A stretch of 60,032 bases of DNA, filler included, from Squatina squatina (lineage: Eukaryota), in the NCBI GenBank assembly GCA_031763465.1. It is 3 parts of 3 records of this genome, joined end to end, with 100 filler letters (N's around TTAATTAATTAA, not from the genome) between each part and the next. Parts side by side here need not be neighbours in the genome. Positions count along the whole stretch, not along the records: positions 44,284 to 60,032 come from JARFOE010000001.1; 2 more parts are not named here. The stretch is one strand, 5' to 3'. This document shows positions 8,386 to 60,032 of the stretch, piece after piece. The notes beneath the pieces were generated by a model. It made no database searches and was not told the DNA's origin. It was given only the letters and a program-made list of their open reading frames with translations. How positions within the stretch are numbered: position 1 is the stretch's first letter; every line of letters begins with the position of its first letter. The translations under genes were made by a program, and so were the position numbers.

Positions 8386-8765
8386 TGTAATTTGGATTAA
8401 TGCTGAAGGTTAGCTATGTGCCATGCTTTCAGTGTAGGAAGCAAGTAATCTAGGAAAGGGTTAACTAGTCAAATGCTAGAAATCTAGGTAGAATTATATA
8501 TTTGAGCATGTGGCACTAGCGTCGAGTCACTGCTCTGTTGTTGAATTTGTAGCTGATGAAGCACAACCAAATTAATATTCATAAGCTCATGCAGATTAAT
8601 TCTGCTATGTTTGTGCAGTTGGCATTTTGCCTTTTTAATTAATTCTGTTGCAGTTCAGATGCATTAGCATTGCGCAGAAAGGAGAGTCTGCTGAGCAGGA
8701 TCGCTAGGCCTGCCACAGAAACAATCCCAATTTTCCTTCCATTATCTTAAATGGTAGAGAAATAT

Positions 8766-9440
8766 GGGGCTAGAAATTGATGGGCGCCACGCTGAAAACG
8801 TGCACGGTGTGGGAGCCGGCATTTCTCTCGCCAGCACTCGGCCTGCCCCTCCCGGAATTCAGCGATCCGGGGTGCCTGCGAGTCGTAGGTCGCTACTGGG
8901 GCAGCAGGCTTTGGACGCCGGTGTTGTGGCTTCAACGCCACATCATCAGCATCAGAAACGCCGCGTCAGCGCAGCACAGCCAGGCCTCCCTTAAAGGGCA
9001 GGGCTGCCGGCCATCGTGACAGTGCCCTGAGGTTGGACACTGGGATCCAGCTGAGGGCCACCATTTTCGACCGATGACGAAGTCGGCCAAAAAATAAAGA
9101 TTGCGGCCGGAGGCGCAGACGCCCTCCCCTTTAACAGGCCTGTTGCAGCGACAGGTTTTACTGTCGCTGCAACCGACCTGTGCTGCGGCCAGTTCCCGCG
9201 GGTGAATTTTGCCCGCAGGATGCAAACTAAGCGTCGAGGGCATTGCAGCTGTTTTGATGATGTCACGTGCAGACCAGCCACGAAATTCAGCTGGGCAGGC
9301 GAGAAGGCGTTTGCACGCCAGCTGAATTTCCCGGGAAGCAAGAGGGGCACCTCACAACGCCATTTTTTTTCTTTTTAATGTCCCATTAACACCCCTCTGA
9401 GGTGCTTCTGGGACATTACAGGAGCTCAATTTTGACCCCC
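8766..9440. mobile_element. GC-rich non-autonomous DNA transposon (PIF/Harbinger-like MITE)
   Basis: Imperfect terminal inverted repeats GGGGCTAGAAATTG ... CAATTTTGACCCC, CpG-rich interior; related ends at 18719-18856 and about 58990. Confidence 0.6.
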
Positions 9441-11975: not shown

Positions 11976-12339
11976 CTTGTTTTACATAGGTCTGTGAAAT
12001 GACAAATTCAACGAGAATAAGCAATAAATATATTTGTCACTGTGGGGTCAATTTTAAGCCGACCTGCCTGGCAGGGAGGCAGGTAAAATTTGTTAGAAAA
12101 AAATACATGAAAAAAAACCTTGAAGCAACACAATAATCCGTAGTTTTATAGCAAAATTACACAACTTAAAAACAGTTCCATAGTATTACATGGGTGCAGG
12201 AGCAAACTGAAGCAGGAAATCTGGAGACCCAATTTAAGGAGAGGCACTACGCAACCCAATTGCATGAATCTTGAGGCCTTGTGGGCAGTATGACTNNNNN
12301 NNNNNNNNNNNNNNNNNNNNNNNNNNNNNNNNNNNNNNN

Positions 12340-12351
12340 TTAATTAATTAA
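12340..12351. other. Artificial six-frame-stop scaffold linker TTAATTAATTAA
   Basis: Flanked by exactly 44 N on each side (100 in total); identical structure at 44228. Confidence 0.95.
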
Positions 12352-13784
12352 NNNNNNNNNNNNNNNNNNNNNNNNNNNNNNNNNNNNNNNNNNNNCCTTC
12401 ACGCCACCCGAAGCATTCATTGCACAGTGTCAGGTACAGTGATGCACAGTTAAGCCTCAGGGTAGTTTTCTGCGAAGCTGCAGTGTCCATTAGTGCGCGG
12501 GTCGTAGGCACTGCTGTTGTGAATCCGACAGCTGCACCGCTCGCAGGGCCAGGGGTAGAAGTAGTTGGGGGTGAAATGGCAGTCTTTCCTGCTCTGATGT
12601 ACGCAAGGGCTGTTTCTGTCCGATTAGCCCTCAGAGCATCTGAGGTGACTCGACGGCACTGAAATGCTAACTTTGCCCTCTGTGGGGTGCTGCCAGAAGT
12701 TCAGGGTCTGGAGATAGACTTTCTTTTGTGCTCGTTTGAAAAAAAAAAGCCCAGAAAAATGATGCTAACAGTATCAGCAAAGACAGGATTTTCTCGCTCA
12801 ACGTAGCCAAACATGTTTCAAACCAGCTCAGATGCTTAATTTTCTAAGATTCTCAAAGCGTGTATCATAAATGATTTCGAGTAAATTCTAGTGCAGCACA
12901 ATGAACAATCATTGTGGATGACATGCCCTTTAGCAACCCATATATACTGATAATGTTCTGCATCAATGTTCACAGATCTTATAGTCTCCTGATATTTGCC
13001 TGTTTCATCAAAGCGGTACTAATGAATTTTATAGTAGCACTCATGAGTAATGGCATATTATAAAAGTCAAGTTATTTCAGATACATAGATTTCATGATTC
13101 TTCTTGATCTCCAAACAAACCGCAGCTCAAAAGTGCACTTATGCAGAAAGTAATAAAAACATTAGCTTTCCTCTTGTTAGCTGATATATATCTTAAAGTG
13201 CATTCGAGCATACTGTGCTGCTTCCTTATGCGGGACCAGAACAATGGGGCGGTAAAGGACCCCACCTGTCCTGGGGCCAATTCGAGTGGCCGGGGACGGG
13301 CTGCAGCATTCGTGACCTCACAGCTAGGGGTGCGCCGCGCTGGCAGTGAGGGTCAGGTGAGCGGCCTTGGTGACTGTCACCGTTCCGGGTAAGCGTAGCG
13401 GGGCAATGCTAAACAAGCATTGTTACAGCACTGAACTGGTGGTGANNNNNNNNNNNNNNNNNNNNNNNNNNNNNNNNNNNNNNNNNNNNNNNNNNNNNNN
13501 NNNNNNNNNNNNNNNNNNNNNNNNNNNNNNNNNNNNNNNNNNNNNTATTTTTTAAACTTTATCCAGCAGTTGTGCACCCACTGATTCCATTTTCCTAGCA
13601 TTCCACTGACTAATTGAGAATGCTAAAGAAACAGATCGGCCAGATATATCAGTCTTGTACTTAGGCCGAGAAATTGGGGGCAGTAACACTTGCGAGACAC
13701 GAGACTTTGTACCAGGCGCCGAGGCCTCGTTTCTCACTGCCCTCGAAAGGAAGTGGAGTGACAAAGCAAGTGCCCCACTTCCTT

Positions 13785-35137: not shown

Positions 35138-37135
35138 ATCAACCTAGTGAACCTTCTCTGAACTGCCTCCAATGCAAGTATATCCTTCCTTAAATAAGGG
35201 GACCAAAACTGTGCACAGTACTCTAGGTGTGGTCTCACCTGCGCCCTGTACAGCTGCAGCAAGACTTCCCTGCTTTTATACTCCATCCCTCTTGAAATAA
35301 AGGCCAACGTTCCATTTGCCTTCCCAATTACCTGCTGCACCTGTGTTTCATATACGAGGACCCCCGAATCCCTCTATGCCACAGATTTCTGCAGTCTTTC
35401 TCCATTTCAATAATATTCTGCTTTTCCATTCTTCCTACCAAAGTGGGTAACTTCACATTTTCCCACATTATACTCCATCTGAAAAGTTTTTGCCCACTCG
35501 CTTAACCTATCTATATCCCTTTGCAGACTCTTTGTATTGACCTCACAACTTGCTTTCCCATCTATCTTTGTATCAGCAGCAAATTCGGCTGCAATACATT
35601 CGCTTCCTTCATCCAAGTGACTAATATAGATTGTAAATAGTTGCAGCCCTGGCACCGACCCCTGTGGCACCCCACTAGTTACAGATTGCCATCCTGAAAA
35701 TGACTGCTTTATCCCCACTGTTTTCTGTTAGTTAGCCAATCCTCTATCCATGCTAATATATTACACCCAGCATGAGCCCTTACCTTATGCAGTAACCTTT
35801 CATGTGGCACCTTATCGAATGCCTTTTTGGAAAACCAAATACACTACATCTACCAGCTCCCCTTTATCCACCCTGCTCATTACTTCCTCAAAGAACTCGA
35901 ATAAATTTGTCAAACACGATTTCACTTTCATAAAACCATGTTGACTCTGCTTGATTATGTTGTGACTTCTAAATGTCCTGCTACTACTTCCTTAATAATG
36001 GATTCTAGCATTTTCCCAATGACAGATGTAAAGCTAACTGGCTTATAGTTACCTGCTTTATGTCTCCCTCCTTTTTTGAATAGGGACGTTACATTTGCGG
36101 TTTTCCAATCTGCTGGGACTTTTCCAGAATCTAGGGAATTTTAGAAGATCACAACCAATGCATCCACTATCTGTGTAGCCACTTCTTTTTACGCCCTAGG
36201 ATGCAAGCCATCAAGTCCAGGTGACTTGTCAGCCTTTAGACCCATTAGTTTGCCTGGTACTTTTTCTCTTGTGATAGTGATTGTTTTAAGTTCCTCACTC
36301 ACTTTTGTCCCTTGATTTTCTACTATTACTGGAATGTTTTTAGTGTCTTCTACTGTGAAAACAGATACAAAATATTTGTTCAATTCCTCTGCCATTTCCT
36401 TGTTTCCCATTATTATTTCCCCGGTCTCATCCTCTAAGGAACCAACATTTACGTTGGCTACTCTTTTCCTTTTTATATACTTGTAGAAGCTATTACTGTC
36501 AGTTTTTATATTTCTTGCTAGTTTACTCTCATAATCTATTTTATCCCTCTTTATTAATTTTTAGTCATCCTTTGCTGGTTTCTAAAAACGTTCCAATCTT
36601 CTGGCTTACCACTAATCTTCACAACATTGTATGCCTTTTCTTTCAATTTGATACCATCCGTAACTTCCTTAGTTAGCCATGGTTGGTTCATTCTTCTCTT
36701 AGAGTTTTTCTTTCTCACTGGAATATATCTTTGTTGAGCGTCATGAAATATCTTAAATGTCTGCCACTGCTTATTACCATCTTACCTTCTCATCTATTTT
36801 CTCAGTCCACTTTAGCCAGCTCTGTCTTTATACCTTTATAATTGCCTTCATTTAAGTTTAATATGCTAGTTTCAGACCCAAGTTTCTCACCCTCAATCTG
36901 AATGTGAAATTCTATCATGTTATGATCACTCTTCCCTAGAGGATCCTTTACTATGAGATCATTAATTAATCCTGTCTCATTATACATTACCAGATCTAAA
37001 ATAGATTGCTCCCACAACGTATTAAGAAACTGTCCCAAATACACTCCATGAACTCGTCCTCAAGGCGACTTTTGCCAATTTGATTTGTCCAATCTATATG
37101 AAGCTTAGAATTGCCCACGCTTATTGCAGTAGGGT
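35138..37135 (-). mobile_element. CR1 LINE ORF2, about 2 kb decayed fragment (EN C-terminus to RT)
   Basis: Serial broken ORFs: LGKSDHNMIEF, KADKSPGLDGLHPR, SGVPQGSV, FAADTKI, VRPHLEYCAQFWSP. Confidence 0.95.
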
Positions 37136-38158: not shown

Positions 38159-40694
38159 ATTATTTAAGTAACTTCCAGTGCACTTGAGTCCATCCACTGT
38201 CTATGATTGAATTTACTGTTGGGAAGAATGACCACCTAAACTAAGATAAGTCTTGAATCGTACTCCTGATAATATATGTTTTCTAACATTAACATCAAAT
38301 AGTAACAAATGACTTTTGGGATTCAGGCTTNNNNNNNNNNNNNNNNNNNNNNNNNNNNNNNNNNNNNNNNNNNNNNNNNNNNNNNNNNNNNNNNNNNNNN
38401 NNNNNNNNNNNNNNNNNNNNNNNNNNNNNNCAGCATCCAAAAAAAACAAAATTCTCCTAGTGATTTTATAATTTGGAACACACTACTCATCTATTTCAAT
38501 TCCACATGTTTTCAATCAGCTGACATGTGAACTCACTGTTCTCAGGTTTGTGTAAAAATAGGACCATCAATAAATAAACGGCAGTAAAACTTAAATAACA
38601 TACAAGATAAAATAGTAGAATTAAGCAATGACAAAAATGTGAATGAAGGGAAATCACATTTGCTTTGTTTTAAATTTTAATCCAGGATTTATAAAAGGCA
38701 AAAGTATAGAATATTTGAAGGGCGAAAGCCTATTCTCCTCCTTCTTTTCATGAGTGGCGGAGACCCTAAATACTGTAGGTAATTTAACATTCTGTATTAG
38801 AATACAGCCCATATCTCTTGTAGTGAAGTTTAAAGACTGGAGGATTGATATAATCCTTTCCCAAGTGACAGTCATAATGCTCTACTAACAGTGATAGTCT
38901 TACCTTGTGAATGACAATACCAGGATACAGTTTTACATTGAATTGAAATGCATTTTTCATCTTGTTCAGGTTATTCATACATAATGCATTTTAAAAGTAC
39001 ATAAACTCATATTTCTTAAAAAATATTTTCTGACTCTGTCTCTAACAATTTATAAAGAGTCAGAACATTATGTATAATTCATATGCTGTCAGTAGGCTGG
39101 GCATAAATCATCGATTTGATTACATAAATACATTAAATGTCTCTTCTAAAAATATTTTTAACCCTATATATATATATGTGGCTGTAAGCAAATGGTCAGA
39201 ATGTTATATGTAGACTTGCTAGCTATTCCCTCCAGTATACATTGAAATAAAACACCTCCTGAGTTTTCTGTTAAGTTAGAACAACATGCATTTATATCGC
39301 GATCCTCACATATCTCAGAGTGCTTTACAGTCACTCAGAGGCACACAGAATCATAGAACCGTACAGCACAGAAGGGGGCCATTCGGCCCACAGTGCCTGT
39401 GCTGGCTGTTTGAAAGAACTCTCCAGTTAGACCCATTCCCTGCGCTTTGCCCACAGCCCTGCAACTAATCTCGCAATTTNNNNNNNNNNNNNNNNNNNNN
39501 NNNNNNNNNNNNNNNNNNNNNNNNNNNNNNNNNNNNNNNNNNNNNNNNNNNNNNNNNNNNNNNNNNNNNNNNNNNNNNNGCTGACTGAAACTTCTGGATT
39601 TCTGTGTTTATCCGCGCGTGCGCTGACTCCGGAAGCTGCTGTCACTTTCAGAGGAGCAATGACGAGGACGAACGCTGGCAGTTTCAACGTCATTCCCGTC
39701 ACAAAATCCCAGGCCATTAACTGTGCCATGTAGGAACAGGGCAGCTAAAAATGCAAAGAGGCAAGCGATCATTTAAAGTGAAAGAGGTGAAGGATGACCC
39801 AACCCGTCCTTGTAATACCCGGGCACACGATAATTCCTATTTAATCATTCAGTGAAGGAGCATGGTTTGCGATCCTTGTGTACATAGTATTAAATGCTCA
39901 GATTCTGTTAAACCTTTAGCTGATTAGTCTAGGGGGAAAAAAAGCTCTTCTAATCTGCCGATTCTCCGGAGGCTGTGTGCCTTCTGGAGGTCAAAGGGGT
40001 GGCGGTGAGGGATCCTTTCTTTGTCATTGTGGTAATCCTTTCTGCCACAGAAGGCCTTTTCCTTTATCCTAATGACATTTGCTGTTAATCTCTGAGGAGC
40101 AATAGTTTGGCTGTGCAACTGGGTTGAATCAGCGGTAATCTGCCTGGCTGCCGGTGCCCTATAGCTGACATTTAATGAAGTTAATGTATTAAAGTATTAA
40201 ATGATCTTGCGTTTAATTAATTTCCTCTGTGAGTCTGCTTCACATATAATTAGAGGCAGCACCAAAAAAGTTTGAAATAGTGACTGATTAATTGAAGCGT
40301 GACGCGTCTTGGCACTTTGAGACCCAGCGCCTGTTGCTTCGTCCTATTAGAATTCCAAAACTGTACCAGTTTGGTGTAGGTGAGACAAAAAGAGACGTAA
40401 ATCTGTCTTATTTACTTCTTGAATTCAATGAACGGTTCTTTCGCACAACTGTTTCAACTGCAGAATATGACCTTTATTGTAATAACCAATTTAAACATTC
40501 ATTCAATATTTACCACTTAGCCTTTTGTTCAATAGATAATTTCCTCGAGGTACATTTAATGAGACGTATCTTGTAGGAACTATTTGTCCTAAAGTTGTGT
40601 CGCAAGTAAAATAAAGTGTGAGGCAAAAGGGCGAATGTGACCTTTAAAGAGGTTCCTCTGCGCACGAGTTTGTTTTCCAACTATTGATGCACGT

Positions 40695-41007
40695 AACATA
40701 AGACCATAAGAAATAGGAGCAGGAGTCGGCCATTCGGCCCCTCGAGCCTGCTCCGCCATTCAATGAGACCATGGCTGATCTTCTACTTCAACACCATTTT
40801 CCTGCACTATCCCCATAGCCCTCGATGCTTTTAGAAATCTATCAATCTCCGTTTTGAATGTAATCAAGGACTGAGCCTCCACAGCACTCTGGGGTAGAGA
40901 ATTCCAAAGATTTTCTATCCTCTGAGTGAAGAAATTTCTCCTCATCTCAGTCCTAAATGGCCGACCTCTTATCCTGAGACTGTTACCCCTCATTCTAGAC
41001 TCCCCAN
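40695..41007 (-). mobile_element. CR1 LINE 3' end
   Basis: RGRPFRTEMRRNFFTQRIENLWNSLP plus tail. Confidence 0.9.
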
Positions 41008-43910: not shown

Positions 43911-44227
43911 TGTAACCAATAAGTGTTGCTATTTTAATGTTGGTGTTCCTATAGGAAATGTTTCCATCGCAGGTTTCAGTGAACACTAAGAATTGTAATC
44001 TATAGATGTACTTGTATCTACTCAGACTTTTACAGATCTGTATCAGCTTGCTCAGAAGGGAAGAACTTTCAAAATGTGTGTAGGAGGGAACTGTGCCCCT
44101 CATTTCATTAAGTCTTTAGGAAGATTCATTTATTAGCAAGGCCTTGAGAAGCGTAACTTGTAGCAAGTTGATTTGAAGGTACTNNNNNNNNNNNNNNNNN
44201 NNNNNNNNNNNNNNNNNNNNNNNNNNN

Positions 44228-44239
44228 TTAATTAATTAA
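44228..44239. other. Artificial six-frame-stop scaffold linker TTAATTAATTAA
   Basis: N44-linker-N44, as at 12340. Confidence 0.95.
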
Positions 44240-45230
44240 NNNNNNNNNNNNNNNNNNNNNNNNNNNNNNNNNNNNNNNNNNNNATGGCCGCCCAGTGTGC
44301 ACCTGAAAACAGGGCCAGCAGATGAAAATCCAGGGAGGCAATCTCTCAGCCACTCCTTTGACGCCCAAGACCCACCTGATGTGATATTTCAGGCAGGCCG
44401 TTAAATGGGTAAGCAGCCCAGCCGCCAGAAACAGGCGCAAGGCTGCTTAAAGATACAAATCAGGGTCATACATGTGGCGCATGTTCTGCCTACCAGATCT
44501 TGAGTGGCCTAACCAGTGGTCTTTAATAGGACCACTGAAGGCCGCTCAAAAAAAAAAGGCCTAAAATATTTTAATTTTTATTTTTCTGGACCAGGAGTAA
44601 CAGCATTGCTTTTCTTGGGCCTACAAGAAAAAAAAAATATCCAACGGCATTTTCACAGCCCCCCTCGCCACCAACCCCAAGGATTGCCTCCTCTCCCAGA
44701 CTCACCCTGCTGGCCGATTTCCCACCCTCTCTGAACGGCGAGCTGCAGCAGTCGCTGGCAGCCTTTAAATGAGCCCGAAGCCAAATTTGGATTGGGCCTC
44801 AGGCCAGCACAGACCATTGTGCAGAAAAGTCGCTCTGGCAACTTTGTACACCTTTTGAGTGCAAGTCGAATTGCTCGACTCCCAACTTTTGCTGTGACAT
44901 AATTTGGTTCCCCTGGTGTCCGTAACACTCTGGTTTCTCAACCAAGTAGCTGCTGTTTATGTGCAAACCTGACAGTGGATAGCAACAAACTAGTTAACTA
45001 TGGAATCAAAGTCAAGGCCAATTCTCACCACATACCTAAACATTCCAGCTGGAGTCACCAGATAGTGGTCAGGGTGGAAACCCAGTTTATTTTCCTTTTC
45101 TTTCCTGGTGACACTGAGATCAGCTAACTAATTATGGAACGGGGACTTTCCTGGTCTGTATGGCTCAGTGCCACATCACACGTTGCATTTACTGTACTTA
45201 CTGTTAAGAGCTGTAACAGAGAGACTCCTA

Positions 45231-48138: not shown

Positions 48139-49033
48139 CTATTGAATGAGAGAGAGAGTAAAGAAGGGAAAGATAAATGTGTTTTGACTGTATGGTTTAG
48201 ACATGCCTAAAACAGACACTGACAGAACTGTTCCACTCCAAAGAAAATTTTGAAAAGCAAAAAAAAATTTAAATTCTATTCTGCCTGCTGACAGGAATTG
48301 CAAAATTTCCATNNNNNNNNNNNNNNNNNNNNNNNNNNNNNNNNNNNNNNNNNNNNNNNNNNNNNNNNNNNNNNNNNNNNNNNNNNNNNNNNNNNNNNNN
48401 NNNNNNNNNNNNTCCCTGCTTTCTCCCCATATCCCTTGCTCCCTTTAGCCTTAAGAGCTATATCTAACTCCTTCTTGAATATATTTAATATTGTATCGTG
48501 TGATTATCAGGATAGTAGAAGATAAACTGGATGGTCTTTTTTCGTCTAGCAATTCCTGTGTCGGTGATTCACCAGTAGTTTTGTCAATAATATTGGCTCC
48601 CTTTCTCTTTCCCTGGGCTGTGGGTTTAAAGAGAACTTTGATTTTACATCATTTAAAATTAATGTGAAGATAACTTCATTTGAATGCTGAAATGTATCCA
48701 ATTTAAATCTGAGCGACAGTAAATTGCTGTAAATTCAACCTAGCATGTTTACGTATGAGTTGAAATAGAATTTATATAGTACACAAAAGGAATGCAAGTA
48801 TTCACTGGCCTAATGTGATAAAGCTAAGGAGATTCTAGGTCCCACAGCATTTTCCAGTTTCAAGATAACAATTTCTTTAGATTGTGTCACAGTAAGCATT
48901 GAATACAAAATGACTTGATTAGTAAGTTAGTATTTTTCTCAATATTAAGAGTTATAGATTTAAAAAGTTAGTAACACTAAGCAATGATGGTAGATGAAAA
49001 TATTTAGTTTCACTGCTTTTTTTTATCTTTCAG

Positions 49034-49505
49034 AATATGGTTTCCAGTTTTCGTGTATCAGAACTTCAAGTGCTATTAGGTTTTGCCGGTCGTAACAAAA
49101 GCGGTCGCAAACATGAACTCCTTGTAAGAGCACTACACTTGTTGAAGAGTGGCTGTAGTCCAGCTGTTCAGATCAAGATTAAGGAACTGTACAGACGCCG
49201 TTTTCCTAGAACTATTGAAAGCCTTGCTGACTTGTCAGCCATAAAGTCTTCTGTTTTCTCTTTGGACAATAACCTCCCAGCTGACTCTGAGTTAGCCTCA
49301 GGCATTGCGCAGTCTTCGGCATCCACATCGGCCACACCTCAACCGTCATCTCCACTGGTTAGCCCTGTGTTACTGCATGAAACTAAACCGAATATAGAAA
49401 TGCAAGAGGCTTCACCCTCCATCCATCCTGTCCATCCAGATGTCCAGCTGAAAAGCATACCCTTTTATGATGTGTTGGACGTGCTTATTAAACCTACAAG
49501 TCTAG
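49034..49505 (+). CDS. PIAS2: E3 SUMO ligase PIAS2, exon 2 (SAP domain to start of PINIT)
   Basis: tttcag|AAT ATG..CTA G|gtgag; NMVSSFRVSELQVLLGFAGRNKSGRK..KSGCSPAVQIKI..PVHPDVQLK..FYDVLDVLIKPTSL. Confidence 0.97.
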
Positions 49506-49911
49506 GTGAGTTTTAATATTCAAACATTACAGTAACAGAGTAAAGGAATATTTTAGCCAGACCCAAAAAAAAAAGTATCTCCTTTAAGCTTTTCTTTCCT
49601 AAAGGCAGCTCCACAGGTGGTGAAACTTCGAAAAACTTGCTCATGTGATGGTGGACTTTAAGTGTTAGTAGGTTATTTGTCTATGACCGTCATAGCTGAG
49701 ATGTTTACCTGATTTGCACTTGTTCAGTTTAACAGGCACAATCTATATAGTTTGATTTTGCAGGTAACAGAAGCCACATCAACATCTTAATTGGGGATTN
49801 NNNNNNNNNNNNNNNNNNNNNNNNNNNNNNNNNNNNNNNNNNNNNNNNNNNNNNNNNNNNNNNNNNNNNNNNNNNNNNNNNNNNNNNNNNNNNNNNNNNA
49901 TTTGGTTCCAG

Positions 49912-50002
49912 GTTTTGCCTCGCAGAGACGAGCTGTCCCCAGGAAGACAATTATCCTAATAATTTGTGTATAAAAGTAAATGGAAAACTTTATCCATTGC
50001 CG
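49912..50002 (+). CDS. PIAS2: PIAS2 PINIT-domain exon
   Basis: ccag|..|gtaag, 91 nt: (R)FCLAETSCPQEDNYPNNLCIKVNGKLYPLP. Confidence 0.95.
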
Positions 50003-55222: not shown

Positions 55223-55539
55223 NNNNNNNNNNNNNNNNNNNNNNNNNNNNNNNNNNNNNNNNNNNNNNNNNNNNNNNNNNNNNNNNNNNNNNNNNNNNNN
55301 NNNNNNNNNNNNNNNNNNNNNNATTTTGTTTTTATTAACAAAGGACAGCATACATTACGTTATCTCCGTGTATAAGCCCAGTGAGGCTGCCCAGGCAGGT
55401 CACTGACTATAAATAAGAGCAGCTCTTGTTTATCTCACTGTCACATGTCTGCAGTTCCAGCGCTCTCTGTGTAACATCTGCTGCTATACTGCAAGAAGTG
55501 AAGGAGTGAGCGGAATTGAGTTCACATAATGTTCTGAAG

Positions 55540-55821
55540 GACAAGTGCATGATATTTATAGCCACTACTTTTTGACTGTAATTTTGTCGAGGTGGTTATC
55601 ATAGGCGGGGAAGCCAGCTGTGCCAACGAAAAAATTATCCGAGCAGCGGTTTTCAAGATATAGCCTCGGGCACTTTTCGGAGGTCACTCAGCAGGCCTAC
55701 ATTTGGGGGCTCGTAGTTCACAAACCATCATAGTTACGACATCAAACCTACACATTTATATTGAAGAAACTTGCATTGAACCGAGGAACATTTTTTTTTT
55801 ACCATATGCCGAGAGATCCCT
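55540..55821. mobile_element. Kolobok-like DNA transposon end
   Basis: Ends ..GAGAGATCCCT|TTAA (reverse complement TTAA|AGGGAT), the TTAA + RR terminus typical of Kolobok. Left limit unknown. Confidence 0.4.
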
Positions 55822-55825
55822 TTAA

Positions 55826-56860
55826 CCCTCGCACCGACGGGGGTCTGAGCCAACATAGAACCGACGGTGGGGGCGGATAACCGCCCCCCCCTACAGAGAT
55901 CTCGAAAACTACTCAACGTATCGAGAAGCGGAAAACGGCGTTAGGTAGGCCGTGACGAGTACTATAGAAAATATAAAGGTGATTTTCTGATCAGGTCAAT
56001 ATTGAGGTCACCAGAGGTCAAAACAGGTCAAATTTTCCTATATTTCGAGTAAATTGAACATTGCGTCACATAATCCGGGCTAGCTCGGTAACTAAGATAG
56101 CTATAATTAAACGGTAAAAAGCACTGGAAAGCCCTTGAAACGCTCTTTCGCGTCTATGTCCTCAGATTTGAGATCGGGTCAATAGTTGAGGCTCCAGAGG
56201 TCAGGAAAGGTCAAAATGCTAAATTTCGCGGAAAAAGTGTTTTGCTAATAACTTTTTATTTATATAAGCTAGAGCAAAACTTTTGTCACCATCGTGTTTC
56301 TCTCGTCACGGCGCATCGAATGATCTATCGGATGACCTAGCTAGGTCAAATTCGAAAATTTGACCTGACCTGACCTGAGGTCATGTCAAGGTCAAGTCAA
56401 ATTTGATATCACTTGATGACGATCGATAAGAGAAACAGAATGGTGAAAACCCTAGCACTCTACCTCACGTAGAAGACGAGTTATTGTACAAAAACCAAAT
56501 ATGCCCTGGGGCACATTGGATTTGACCTCAAAGAGGTCACGGAAGAAAATTATAATATGCATTCTTCTACATAGCTCCAAAATAGTCATATTGATGAATA
56601 GTTAGCTGTTATAACAATTCCACCAAAATCACACCATGGCCAATTCAAAAGTATGGATTGAAACTCCATGGAAATGTGCCCTTTCTCAACACATGACTAA
56701 AATGATATTCTTGTTTTTTGCTGAATCTATTTTTTCACATTAATTTATGTTCTTTCTATAAATGTTGTAAAAAAACACTTCATGAAAAGCAAACATCACA
56801 AACTCAAACCACCAGCAATTGTGAAGGCTATGTCGTTAGTGTCATTTGTTATAGGTGAAC
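55826..56860. mobile_element. piggyBac-like (TTAA|CCC) CpG-rich element with AGGTCA repeat array
   Basis: TTAA|CCCTCGCACCGACGG, a second ACCGACGG, a GGGGGCGG-ATAA-CCGCCCCC hairpin and 15 AGGTCA/TGACCT hexamers. No matching right end found. Confidence 0.55.
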
Positions 56861-56864
56861 GTGG

Positions 56865-57075
56865 AAAATCATAATATGATTAGGCAGAGTCAACACAGTT
56901 CTATGAAATGGAAATCATGTTAGACAAATCTATTACAGTTTTAAAGAGGGTGTAACTGACAGGGTAGATAAGGGAACCAGTGGATGTAATATATTTGGAT
57001 TTTCAGAAACGATTTGATAAGGTGCCACGCAAGAGGTTGTTACACAAGATTAGTGCTCATGTGATTGGGGGTAAT
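56865..57075 (+). mobile_element. CR1 LINE RT fragment
   Basis: VDVIYLDFQKRFDKVP motif. Confidence 0.9.
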
Positions 57076-57376
57076 NNNNNNNNNNNNNNNNNNNNNNNNN
57101 NNNNNNNNNNNNNNNNNNNNNNNNNNNNNNNNNNNNNNNNNNNNNNNNNNNNNNNNNNNNNNNNNNNNNNNNNNNCAGTATCTTGGAGCGCTCAAACCGC
57201 ATGCAATCGTGCCGCCTCTTGCTCCACCTGTGCTCAGTTTAAGTATTATGCAGAGAAGAAAACCATTCATAATCGCTTTGTCCCTAGACTTCCAACGAAG
57301 TGGCTAGCACTGTTAGAGTTGATGATACAACGGCGTGTGAATCTGTTTTTAAGAATGTGATCTTTATTTGCTGCAG

Positions 57377-57469
57377 ATACTTTGAGTTGCACGAAGGCCC
57401 GTTTGAGTACAACTCCTCAACATGCCGGAAGCTACGAAATGAGATCATGGAGGTGAAGATACTTTCCAT
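57377..57469 (+). CDS. ST8SIA5: Alpha-2,8-sialyltransferase 8E, exon 2
   Basis: tgctgcag|..|gtaagt, 93 nt: (R)YFELHEGPFEYNSSTCRKLRNEIMEVKILS(M); matches ST8SIA5 YFEFYEGPFEYNSTRC..EVKVLSM. Confidence 0.93.
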
Positions 57470-57539
57470 GTAAGTCACTGACTTCAAAGGCAGAGGTTCT
57501 CATGAAAATCGTATTTTAAAAAAGGCATATGATAAAAAT

Positions 57540-58146
57540 GGACAGAGTGACAATATGTAGAAGAAATCTGAGAATTGTGAAAGATACAGGAATGAAGCAA
57601 AAAGAGAGATTAGAAAAGCTGAAAGGAAGTATGAAAGGTGGATCAAAGAAAATTGGGCAGCAGCACAATGGGATCACTTTGAGGAAAAGGGGGCCATCTT
57701 ACACTTGAAAGCGAGGAAATAACAGATATGCTTTATATAATATATATATATAGTATCAGGTTTTTTTAAGAGGAATGTGATAGTGGGTCTGTGGGAATAC
57801 CTGAGGAGCCATTACTCGTGGTAAATATTGAAAAGGACTCTTTAAAATGTTATCTAAATTAAAAATAGAAAAGTCACCAGGTCCAGAATGCATGTATCCT
57901 GAAAATACTGAAGCTGTTGGAAAGTAAATAGCAGAGACACTAAACATAATTTTTCAAACATTTTTGGAAACCAGAATTATGTTAAAGAACAGGAAGGGGT
58001 AAGCCTGTTCCACCATTCAATGACATTATGGCTGACCTGCGACCTAACTCCATATACTCGCCTTTGGCCCATATCTCTTAATACTTTTGGTTAGCAGAAA
58101 GCTATGAATCTCCGATTTAAAAATTAACAATTGACCTATCATCAAT
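57540..58146. mobile_element. Degenerate CR1 fragments (plus-strand ORF2 remnant, then minus-strand 3' end)
   Basis: AKREIRKAERKYE and LKIEKSPGP remnants, then the reverse complement of a CR1 tail. Confidence 0.6.
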
Positions 58147-58419
58147 NNNNNNNNNNNNNNNNNNNNNNNNNNNNNNNNNNNNNNNNNNNNNNNNNNNNNN
58201 NNNNNNNNNNNNNNNNNNNNNNNNNNNNNNNNNNNNNNNNNNNNNNCACATGTATACATATGTGTGTCTGTGTAGATCTATGCATGTAAAGAATAAATGA
58301 GACTTTGATTCCATTCATCTGGGTTGGATTTCAAATGTAGCTTTATACTGTCGTGACAAAAATCCATGCTGCCCAGTCCTTGTTATCTATAATTGGTTTT
58401 TGGGGTTTCCTCTTCATAG

Positions 58420-58532
58420 GAAATGCCATATTCACGCTCCCAGTTTAAGAAATGTGCAGTGGTTGGGAATGGAGGAATCCTGAAGAACAGCAGGTGCGGG
58501 AACGAGATTGACTCTACAGATTTCGTGTTCAG
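58420..58532 (+). CDS. ST8SIA5: ST8SIA5 sialylmotif L exon
   Basis: catag|..|gtatg, 113 nt: [37 protein letters not shown](R). Confidence 0.95.
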
Positions 58533-58989
58533 GTATGACGGAGCAGAGCCCTTCCTTGTGCTACAGTGGAACACACAAATCTTCAGGGAATGCTTTCCAG
58601 AAAATAAATGTCTAAATGTTCATTACATCTATAGAGATATGGGTCCTGAAATTCTGCTGACGTTCTCCTAATCTCTGGCCATAACGTCGGTGGGAGATCG
58701 GAGGAACCCCAGAAGAAACAACGTGAATGGCTGAACATGACAATATGTGTTGTTTTTCTGGGATTTCCATTTGTTTCCCGCTGAAGTTATAACGAGAGAT
58801 CAGGAGAAGCCCCGCAGAATTTCTAGGTCATGGTCACCATATCTGGGAGTTTTTCTAAGTTCTGAAAAGAGATTAAGGAGGTTGGGTTGCCCAGTGAAAG
58901 TTTTCAAGATTAAAGGAAATTGACAAAATTGACCGAAGCAATATGTTGACTGTGGTGAAAGGCTCACACAACTTTTAAAGATTAATTCA

Positions 58990-60032
58990 GGCCACTTGCG
59001 CTTCCTGTTAGTGCCCCTGGGGATGCTAATGGGGGCCAAACCTTTCGCCCATGCACGGCGCCGCTATCGACTCCTGCGAAAATCCGCGGGAGGTTCACAG
59101 CGGCATGAACTGGTAGCACCCCAGGCCGCCGCGCCGGCGATGATGATGTCATCACCATGTGCAGTGACCCGTTTTCACCCCGGAGCAGAAATTCAGGAGC
59201 GCCCCCCCTCCTGAAGCTTTGCTGGGCGATGACAGCAACAGCTTCAGTGGGTGTGTACCGGGCTGCAGGCCACTCGTGGGCTGCTAGTTAAAGGGGAGGT
59301 GGCAAGCACGAAAAATCGGCTGACTTACCAGTCGCATCTTTCAACACGAGGTCCGTGCCACAATCTGGCAGCCCGGCACTCTGCTTGAGTGCTGGGGTGA
59401 TGCCATGGCACTCCGCTCCCGCAGAGTCTGCAGCTCAGCCCGCCACACGGCAGCGCTACGTATGCTGCGCCCGGTGACGATGATTCTCCACTGCAATCCC
59501 TGTCTCCAGCGCCTGCGCCCCTTTCCCCATGCTTCCACTCTGGTCTTCCCCCTAGGTTTCTATCCATCCTGGATATGGCTGCAATCAGAGTCTGCAAGCT
59601 GCTGTTCACAGCAAACATGCACTTTTTTGACTGGTGCATTTGATGCCGTATGTAGATGACCATCCTTTCCATGAAAGAGCACATCTAGCCATTGCCTGCG
59701 ACATCGTGCTGCTCATATTGGAGATGGACTGCTCCAATCTCTGCACCATCGAGCACATCGCAGTTGAGAAAGCTGCCAGAGCCACCTAAATTTTTTGTTG
59801 CTCCTCAAGAATCATCTTTGTCGACAGTCCCCGAGGTTCAGCATCTGCGTCTAGCTGAGCAAAGTTTGGAGCATCTTGGACCCTCCGAGGAGGACTATCC
59901 ACTGCTGCCCCTGTCTCCACCATCTGCCCTTGCTCACTTGTGATCTGTGAGACGAGTGACAACACTAGTCTCTCTCTTACTGGACCCACTGAAATGTGCG
60001 TATCTGCACTGGTGCTGGGTGTGCATGTATCA
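58990..60032. mobile_element. GC-rich Harbinger-like element (same end family as 18719), possibly with a decayed internal ORF on the minus strand
   Basis: GTTAGTGCCCCTGGGGATGCTAATGGGG matches the reverse complement of 18790-18835; minus-strand helical remnant ILEEQQKI*VALAAFSTAMCSMVQRLEQSISNMSS. Confidence 0.5.

Follow-up and report, generated by a model that had tools for sequence, protein, structure and literature searches.

A CpG-rich composite of two TTAA-abutting repeat ends in a Squatina squatina scaffold, probably of contaminant origin

In the description of the coral CMITEs (PMC2872659), piggyBac elements are characterised by a TTAA followed by a CC[C/T]T terminal motif, whilst Kolobok elements are described as having a TTAA target and ends of the form 5'-RR...YY-3' (PMC9587614). 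Cryptons, as set out in PMC3212892, lack terminal inverted repeats, have direct repeats of 4-6 bp at their termini and encode a tyrosine recombinase. Two accounts of transfer between vertebrates are also relevant here. A survey of horizontal transposon transfer demanded five copies per clade as a guard against contamination (PMC7070016), and segments described as having passed between teleosts contain donor transposons that are found once in the recipient and many times in the donor, each transfer being corroborated by a second species or a second assembly (PMC12107551).

We analysed a 60,032 nt stretch of the Squatina squatina genome (assembly GCA_031763465.1), referred to throughout as the window, in which positions 55569-56598 appear to be two non-autonomous DNA transposon ends lying head to head on one TTAA. 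These are ordinary ends of non-autonomous DNA transposons, to which the names Kolobok-like (left) and piggyBac-like (right) can probably be given. The right piece resembles piggyBac and the CMITEs, as described in PMC2872659, in having CCCT after the TTAA, at 55826, in being non-coding and in being abundant in an animal genome; it differs from the CMITEs described there in comprising one end only, in its size (at least 773 bp as opposed to around 100 bp) and in its richness in GGTCA/TGACC, the comparison being one of features rather than of sequence. As regards the terminal inverted repeats of 12-19 bp that piggyBac has at both ends, together with a duplicated TTAA, the contig contains neither a GGG-TTAA end, this copy being cut off at 56598, nor a second TTAA partner. 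The foreign piece as a whole encodes no open reading frame longer than 77 aa, and the longest has no Pfam match; no piggyBac transposase was found, and the right piece is filed as piggyBac-like only, non-autonomous at best.

The left piece has CT before the TTAA (AG on the minus strand), which is the RR/YY pattern described for Kolobok (PMC9587614), at the sole end present. It is unlike the elements of that description in that the other end is absent, there is no transposase, and no long terminal direct repeats in the style of KolobokP are seen. When the outer ends, which are cuts rather than family termini, were checked for the direct repeats of Cryptons, any such repeats were not above chance.

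The locus is like the transfers of the vertebrate survey (PMC7070016) in that a transposon is far more alike between organisms than would be expected, if the holders are distant, and unlike them in being a single truncated composite that bears no mark of transposition; the main text of that survey does not contain the words shark, chondrichth or cartilaginous. With the teleost segments, as described in PMC12107551, it shares a donor transposon that is single in the recipient and present in many copies in the donor; those segments, however, carry genes, whereas 55569-56598 is without a gene and is found in one assembly. No comparable case was found by title or by the start of the abstract among open-access papers, a search on which no claim of absence from print is based.

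Two transposon ends and their flanks

The region had been picked out in an initial annotation, at 55826-56865, as a foreign-looking element without CpG depletion. The excess of CpG is confirmed by counting: 55826-56480 contains 37 CpGs, giving an observed/expected ratio (o/e) of 1.16 at a GC content of 0.44, against an o/e of 0.43 for the window. The best 655 bp segment at the locus reaches 1.22, the highest value among 548 gap-free segments of this length, the best elsewhere being 0.85. The density of GGTCA/TGACC that had been remarked upon is equally clear, there being 16 occurrences in 55826-56598 as opposed to 1.2 +/- 1.1 (maximum 5) in 1000 dinucleotide shuffles, whilst the TTAA-CCCT start and its pair of G/C hairpins (55822-55910) also stand, with modest support (z -2.2; 3 of 200 shuffles equal it). 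There is no tandem repeat or satellite at the locus, and no Rfam match anywhere in the window. Other CpG-richer stretches of the window, at 8500-9400, 40200-40850 and 58950-59550 (o/e 0.75-0.85; two of them GC-rich), are probably host repeats.

The limits first drawn, by contrast, are wrong, the foreign piece being 55569-56598, which extends 257 bp further to the left and stops 267 bp before the neighbouring LINE. Contigs from the four public sequencing runs compared (X1, X8, X9 and X16) depart from the window sequence at 55569 in two of the four, among the rows listed, and at 56598 in all four; left of 55569, contigs of X1 and X8 carry on with other letters, whilst right of 56598 all four runs carry on with identical other letters. 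These divergences fix the limits of the foreign DNA and indicate that it is cut off inside its families on both sides. The whole piece contains 49 CpGs (o/e 1.04).

The sequence at 55818-55829 reads CCCT-TTAA-CCCT, with the TTAA common to both element ends at 55822-55825. Left of it, the Kolobok-like repeat occupies 55569-55821 on the minus strand; this is the terminal 253 bp of the repeat, cut off at 55569, with 11 CpGs (o/e 0.92), and parts of 55569-55795 are covered by contigs in all four compared runs. From the TTAA, 55821 would be the true end of the left family, an assignment that is less sure because one X9 contig leaves the window sequence at 55795, before the terminal 26 bp (55796-55821). 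The piggyBac-like repeat occupies 55826-56598 on the plus strand, as the first 773 bp of its family from the CCCT start, with the G/C hairpins, the GGTCA/TGACC sub-repeats and 38 CpGs (o/e 1.08), and is cut off at 56598. The start of the right piece is an end of the family, since 55826 is the very first position of one X8 contig and one X1 contig reaches 55822 from a different location. A subterminal motif, ATCTYGAAAAC ... GAGAAGCGGAAAACGGCG, lies at 55892-55944 on the plus strand, and an inverted copy of its first part is present in the left piece at around 55639-55649; the opposite orientation of ATCTYGAAAAC in the two halves shows that they face one another.

A single element with paired ends was considered and rejected, as there is no target duplication, there are no terminal repeats and both ends are cut short. 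The best candidate for a target duplication at the outer junctions is 4 bp, which is equalled by 735 of 1580 random pairs, and no inverted repeat was found between the two outer ends, whose score is equalled by 32% of random pairs. Neither intact termini nor a target-site duplication, as would be expected of a transposition product in the shark, was present, and the family continues past both limits. Hence the piece has the character of a scrap of donor chromosome rather than of an element inserted into the shark genome by transposition, and the earlier description of one element integrated next to a CR1 gives way to that of two truncated element ends beside an untouched LINE.

The LINE itself, a 5'-truncated reverse transcriptase fragment that we take, as did the initial annotation, to be of CR1 type, lies at 56866-57075 on the plus strand and runs into a gap; it is 74% identical over 214 columns to 35760-35968, beside which an open reading frame matches RVT_1 with an E value of 5e-5, below the Pfam cut-off. 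It had been argued that an ungapped contig continues into this LINE. Positions 55323-57075 are indeed free of gaps, but the foreign piece makes no contact with the LINE, from which it is separated by 267 bp of host-like DNA. This right flank (56599-56865) is unique and AT-rich, with two CpGs (o/e 0.28), whilst the left flank (55323-55568), which has no other copy in the window and meets the foreign piece at a gapless junction, contains four (o/e 0.36); together they have six CpGs, as against 18 expected at an o/e of 1. Order-2 Markov scores place both flanks (left 12.9, right 7.2) in the range of the host (10.4 +/- 7.6), the metagenome set scoring -12.7 +/- 10.8 and the parts of the foreign piece -3 to -17; the test is rough, since the set used for comparison differs from the donor and since, under an order-1 model, the final third of the right piece scored as host-like. 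Neither flank matches two ST8SIA5 and 150 PIAS-like proteins, against which a coding role was sought. A TATA-like sequence, TATAAATA, is present in the left flank at 55400-55420.

That the surrounding window is chondrichthyan-like is evident from two exons of ST8SIA5, at 57375-57470 and 58420-58533, which are 88% and 95% identical, respectively, to alpha-2,8-sialyltransferase 8E of two carpet sharks. The first of these, on the plus strand, is in the contig following 55323-57075 and marks the scaffold as chondrichthyan-like. Two exons of a PIAS-family gene, presumably PIAS2, the usual neighbour of ST8SIA5, were found at 49031-49507 and 49910-50002, such that the PIAS-family (49031-50002) and ST8SIA5 (57375-58533) exons follow one another in order on the plus strand. 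The greater part of both genes is lost in gaps: the scaffold comprises 45 pieces with a median length of 1049 bp, separated by 46 runs of N, and the 100 bp gaps at 12296-12395 and 44184-44283 consist of 44 N, TTAATTAATTAA and a further 44 N, TTAATTAATTAA being an artificial linker that has a stop in every frame and marks joins made by software. With no more than two exons recovered per gene, the gaps must conceal much DNA, and the contig 55323-57075 is placed by scaffolding alone.

The repeat family in other organisms

A search of public sequencing runs with 136 words from 55560-56865 gave at least 20 holder rows from 14 studies, under 11 organism labels, among the matches listed; none of these was an RNA holder. 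Nine of the labels correspond to single 2023 studies, which may represent one campaign. Organism A holds between 0.47 and 0.64 of the words in four studies, the latter value, that of run X1, being the maximum among the matches listed and equivalent to around 0.8 of the words inside the foreign piece; runs X19 and X20 hold just 0.06 and 0.05, respectively. Contigs from four of the 20 rows were compared with the window at 85% likeness, namely X1 (organism A), X8 (B), X9 (C) and X16 (J), a comparison spanning four of the 11 labels and leaving out seven.

In X1, 31,346 contig records fall on the piece, of which 7983 have a likeness of 99% or above, 11274 of 95-99%, 8039 of 90-95% and 4050 of under 90%. 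The family is therefore large and diversified in the sample of organism A, and the summed depth should not be read as a copy number. One X1 contig joins position 56200, within the right-hand family, to 55822, where that family starts at its TTAA; in the donor, one copy has apparently inserted into another.

The other three runs, which have other labels and come from separate 2023 studies, contain just 21 (X8), 10 (X9) and 42 (X16) records, the pieces listed having depths of around 4-41 in several variants, a pattern that suggests trace DNA. The likeness to the window copy over 608 bp is nonetheless high, with 14 differences in X8 (97.7%) and 10 in X9 (98.4%). On 55991-56216 these three runs contain sister families with GGTCA sub-repeats, at low depth and with loose ends after 56038, as in X1; this is a miniature of the repeat set of organism A under three other labels.

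None of the contigs listed bridges either junction or the TTAA. Both flanks and the ST8SIA5 exon are uncovered in all four runs, which, given that the filter drops records, fits holders that are not sharks but is no proof of this, and cover of the LINE is limited to a short patch at around 56951-57026 in X1 and X16. At 55855, 55868, 55965 and 56553 the window copy has alleles that are rare in X1 (1-8%), and it consequently looks like one locus rather than the consensus of a contaminant. At 56541, 56552 and 56563 it agrees with the X1 majority against X8, X9 and X16, which argues that it did not come from the trace source seen in those three runs.

The mutations separating the copies indicate the kind of genome in which they arose. 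C>T or G>A changes account for only 10 of the 47 variable places in X1, although CpG takes in 98 positions; the ratio of transitions to transversions there is 19/28 (0.68), as opposed to 306/221 in 13 repeat pairs from the window (Fisher p = 0.02, the pairs being older and not independent). In those pairs, 39 of 102 CpG columns have decayed in the partner and 24 are kept in both. The lack of excess change at CpG in the X1 family points to a genome that leaves its repeats unmethylated, as in those invertebrates whose repeats escape methylation. Of the 40 differences listed for the window copy, a listing that leaves out 18 rows, none is due to CpG decay, although up to three of the X1 places could be of this kind. 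Against the X1 majority, 11 of its 14 differences are transversions (p = 0.011), whilst the absence of CpG decay among these 14 is not in itself significant (around 0.34, by hand arithmetic) against the 7.4% share (39/527) of CpG in host repeat changes. Taken together, the lack of CpG decay and the excess of transversions indicate that the window copy diverged outside a shark-type genome.

The suspicion that the DNA is of foreign origin thus holds up, in that near-identical sequence constitutes a large and varied repeat family in the run of another organism, without CpG hypermutability. The donor was probably an animal whose repeats go unmethylated, most likely an invertebrate; the barnacle or mollusc suggested at the outset is a tentative attribution.

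Contamination or capture

We judge 55569-56598 to be, with somewhat better than even chances, contaminant DNA joined in during the assembly of a gappy scaffold. As a feature of the shark genome the foreign piece is more likely not real, and horizontal transfer into the shark is unproven. Two abundant, TTAA-targeting non-autonomous transposons would have met head to head on one TTAA in the donor genome, and the window piece would be a scrap of that chromosome which, having no paired termini, could not move as a unit. Donor DNA may have entered the shark library through co-extracted tissue or carry-over between samples, and the assembler or scaffolder would then have fused the scrap to shark sequence in a mis-join. 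Contamination is favoured because the scaffold is gappy, traces of the family occur in all three of the other organisms compared, there is one copy, and there are signs of neither transposition nor ageing. As a single copy (in 60 kb), the piece would not pass the five-copy filter described in PMC7070016, nor the second species or assembly described in PMC12107551. Against contamination are the two seamless junctions into host-like flanks, each of which is longer than a short read, so that contamination requires either a chimeric join on each side, or a single join and a donor with CpG-poor flanks; furthermore, X8, X9 and X16 might represent relatives, or genuine carriers of the family in low copy number. 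The original argument that an ungapped contig favours integration hence still weighs through these junctions, although, from its sequence, the piece does not appear to support a single integrated element. A two-sided mis-join is uncommon, as is germline capture in a shark, and the weighing of such base rates is a matter of judgement.

The same junctions favour the main rival reading, a very recent capture, by which a 1.03 kb fragment of donor chromosome bearing both transposon ends would have been end-joined into a break in the shark germline without a transposase, leaving a single inert copy. This is a tentative reading, and on present evidence an unlikely one. It would account for a contig that has no gap and is host-like on either side of the piece, and for the private alleles, which are like those of one locus; end joining would give just such an absence of target duplication and termini, and a unique insert would be easy to assemble from short reads. 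There is a precedent in the segments described as moving with donor transposons between teleosts (PMC12107551). Yet the placement and junctions are known from the assembly alone, in a scaffold that is gappy, the family is at trace level in three of three other organisms compared, and, there being no CpG decay among the differences listed, the fragment can have spent almost no time in a methylated genome. Sharks also fertilise internally, and germline captures are rare, which we counted against it. A classical transfer, in which both families invaded the shark lineage, amplified and met at a TTAA there, the copy later being trimmed on both sides, is improbable. It draws on the near-identity to the family of another organism, and on the seven of 11 listed organism labels outside the comparison, but would need two transfers or a ready-made composite, and two deletions besides, all without CpG decay in any of the 40 differences listed; the 60 kb contain no other copy, and there is neither an autonomous partner nor an open reading frame. 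Finally, it is very hard to credit a native chondrichthyan repeat, inherited vertically and CpG-rich through its youth or through an unmethylated promoter region, with organism A being a cartilaginous fish: GC-rich repeats elsewhere in the window do reach an o/e of 0.75-0.85, but many family copies of under 95% likeness keep their CpGs, the transition to transversion ratio of 0.68 is unlike that of the window's own repeats, and the composition groups with the eukaryote-type metagenome loci, not with the host.

If contamination, which we prefer, is correct, the locus is a warning that the high-copy repeat of one organism can appear as a trace in other runs, and that a stray repeat in a gap-free contig can pass the test of being flanked by host DNA that is applied to candidate transfers. 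Capture, if true, would give a rare and direct example of chromosomal DNA passing from an invertebrate into the germline of an internally fertilising shark without transposition, with the head-to-head ends as a donor-formed fingerprint proving that chromosomal DNA, and not a mobile element, had crossed. The donor would then be identifiable at around 98% identity, the date would be bounded by the missing CpG decay, and the route, whether parasite, prey or virus, would become testable.

A motif in common with metagenome loci

No plasmid or phage match was obtained by blastn of 55323-56865, and the exact motifs were absent from the viral sequences and prokaryote genomes scanned. Apart from the runs above, the one further link is a motif of around 45 bp, the subterminal one at 55892-55944, which was found, at the same spacing, in the repeats of 11 (L001, L002 and L004-L012) out of 12 metagenome loci, which come from two assemblies; the twelfth, L003, was dropped as a bacterial-looking chance match with a GC content of 0.62. 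Upstream of the search seed, 10 of the 11 loci agree at 15-17 of 30 bases, whereas only 0.5% of random 30-mers reach 15. The loci are like the window piece in being TGACC-rich, with a CpG o/e of around 1.0-1.35, and unlike it in that nothing aligns past the motif and the element ends differ. As they come from two assemblies only, they do not constitute 11 independent cases. Their DNA looks eukaryotic: one of them (L006) contains a C2-domain exon (E = 5e-17), for which a springtail protein (46%) is the nearest named match.

The 45 bp motif is common to the window piece and to at least two abundant TGACC-rich repeat types of these loci, which differ elsewhere. The motif is possibly a protein-binding module that has been swapped among non-autonomous elements.
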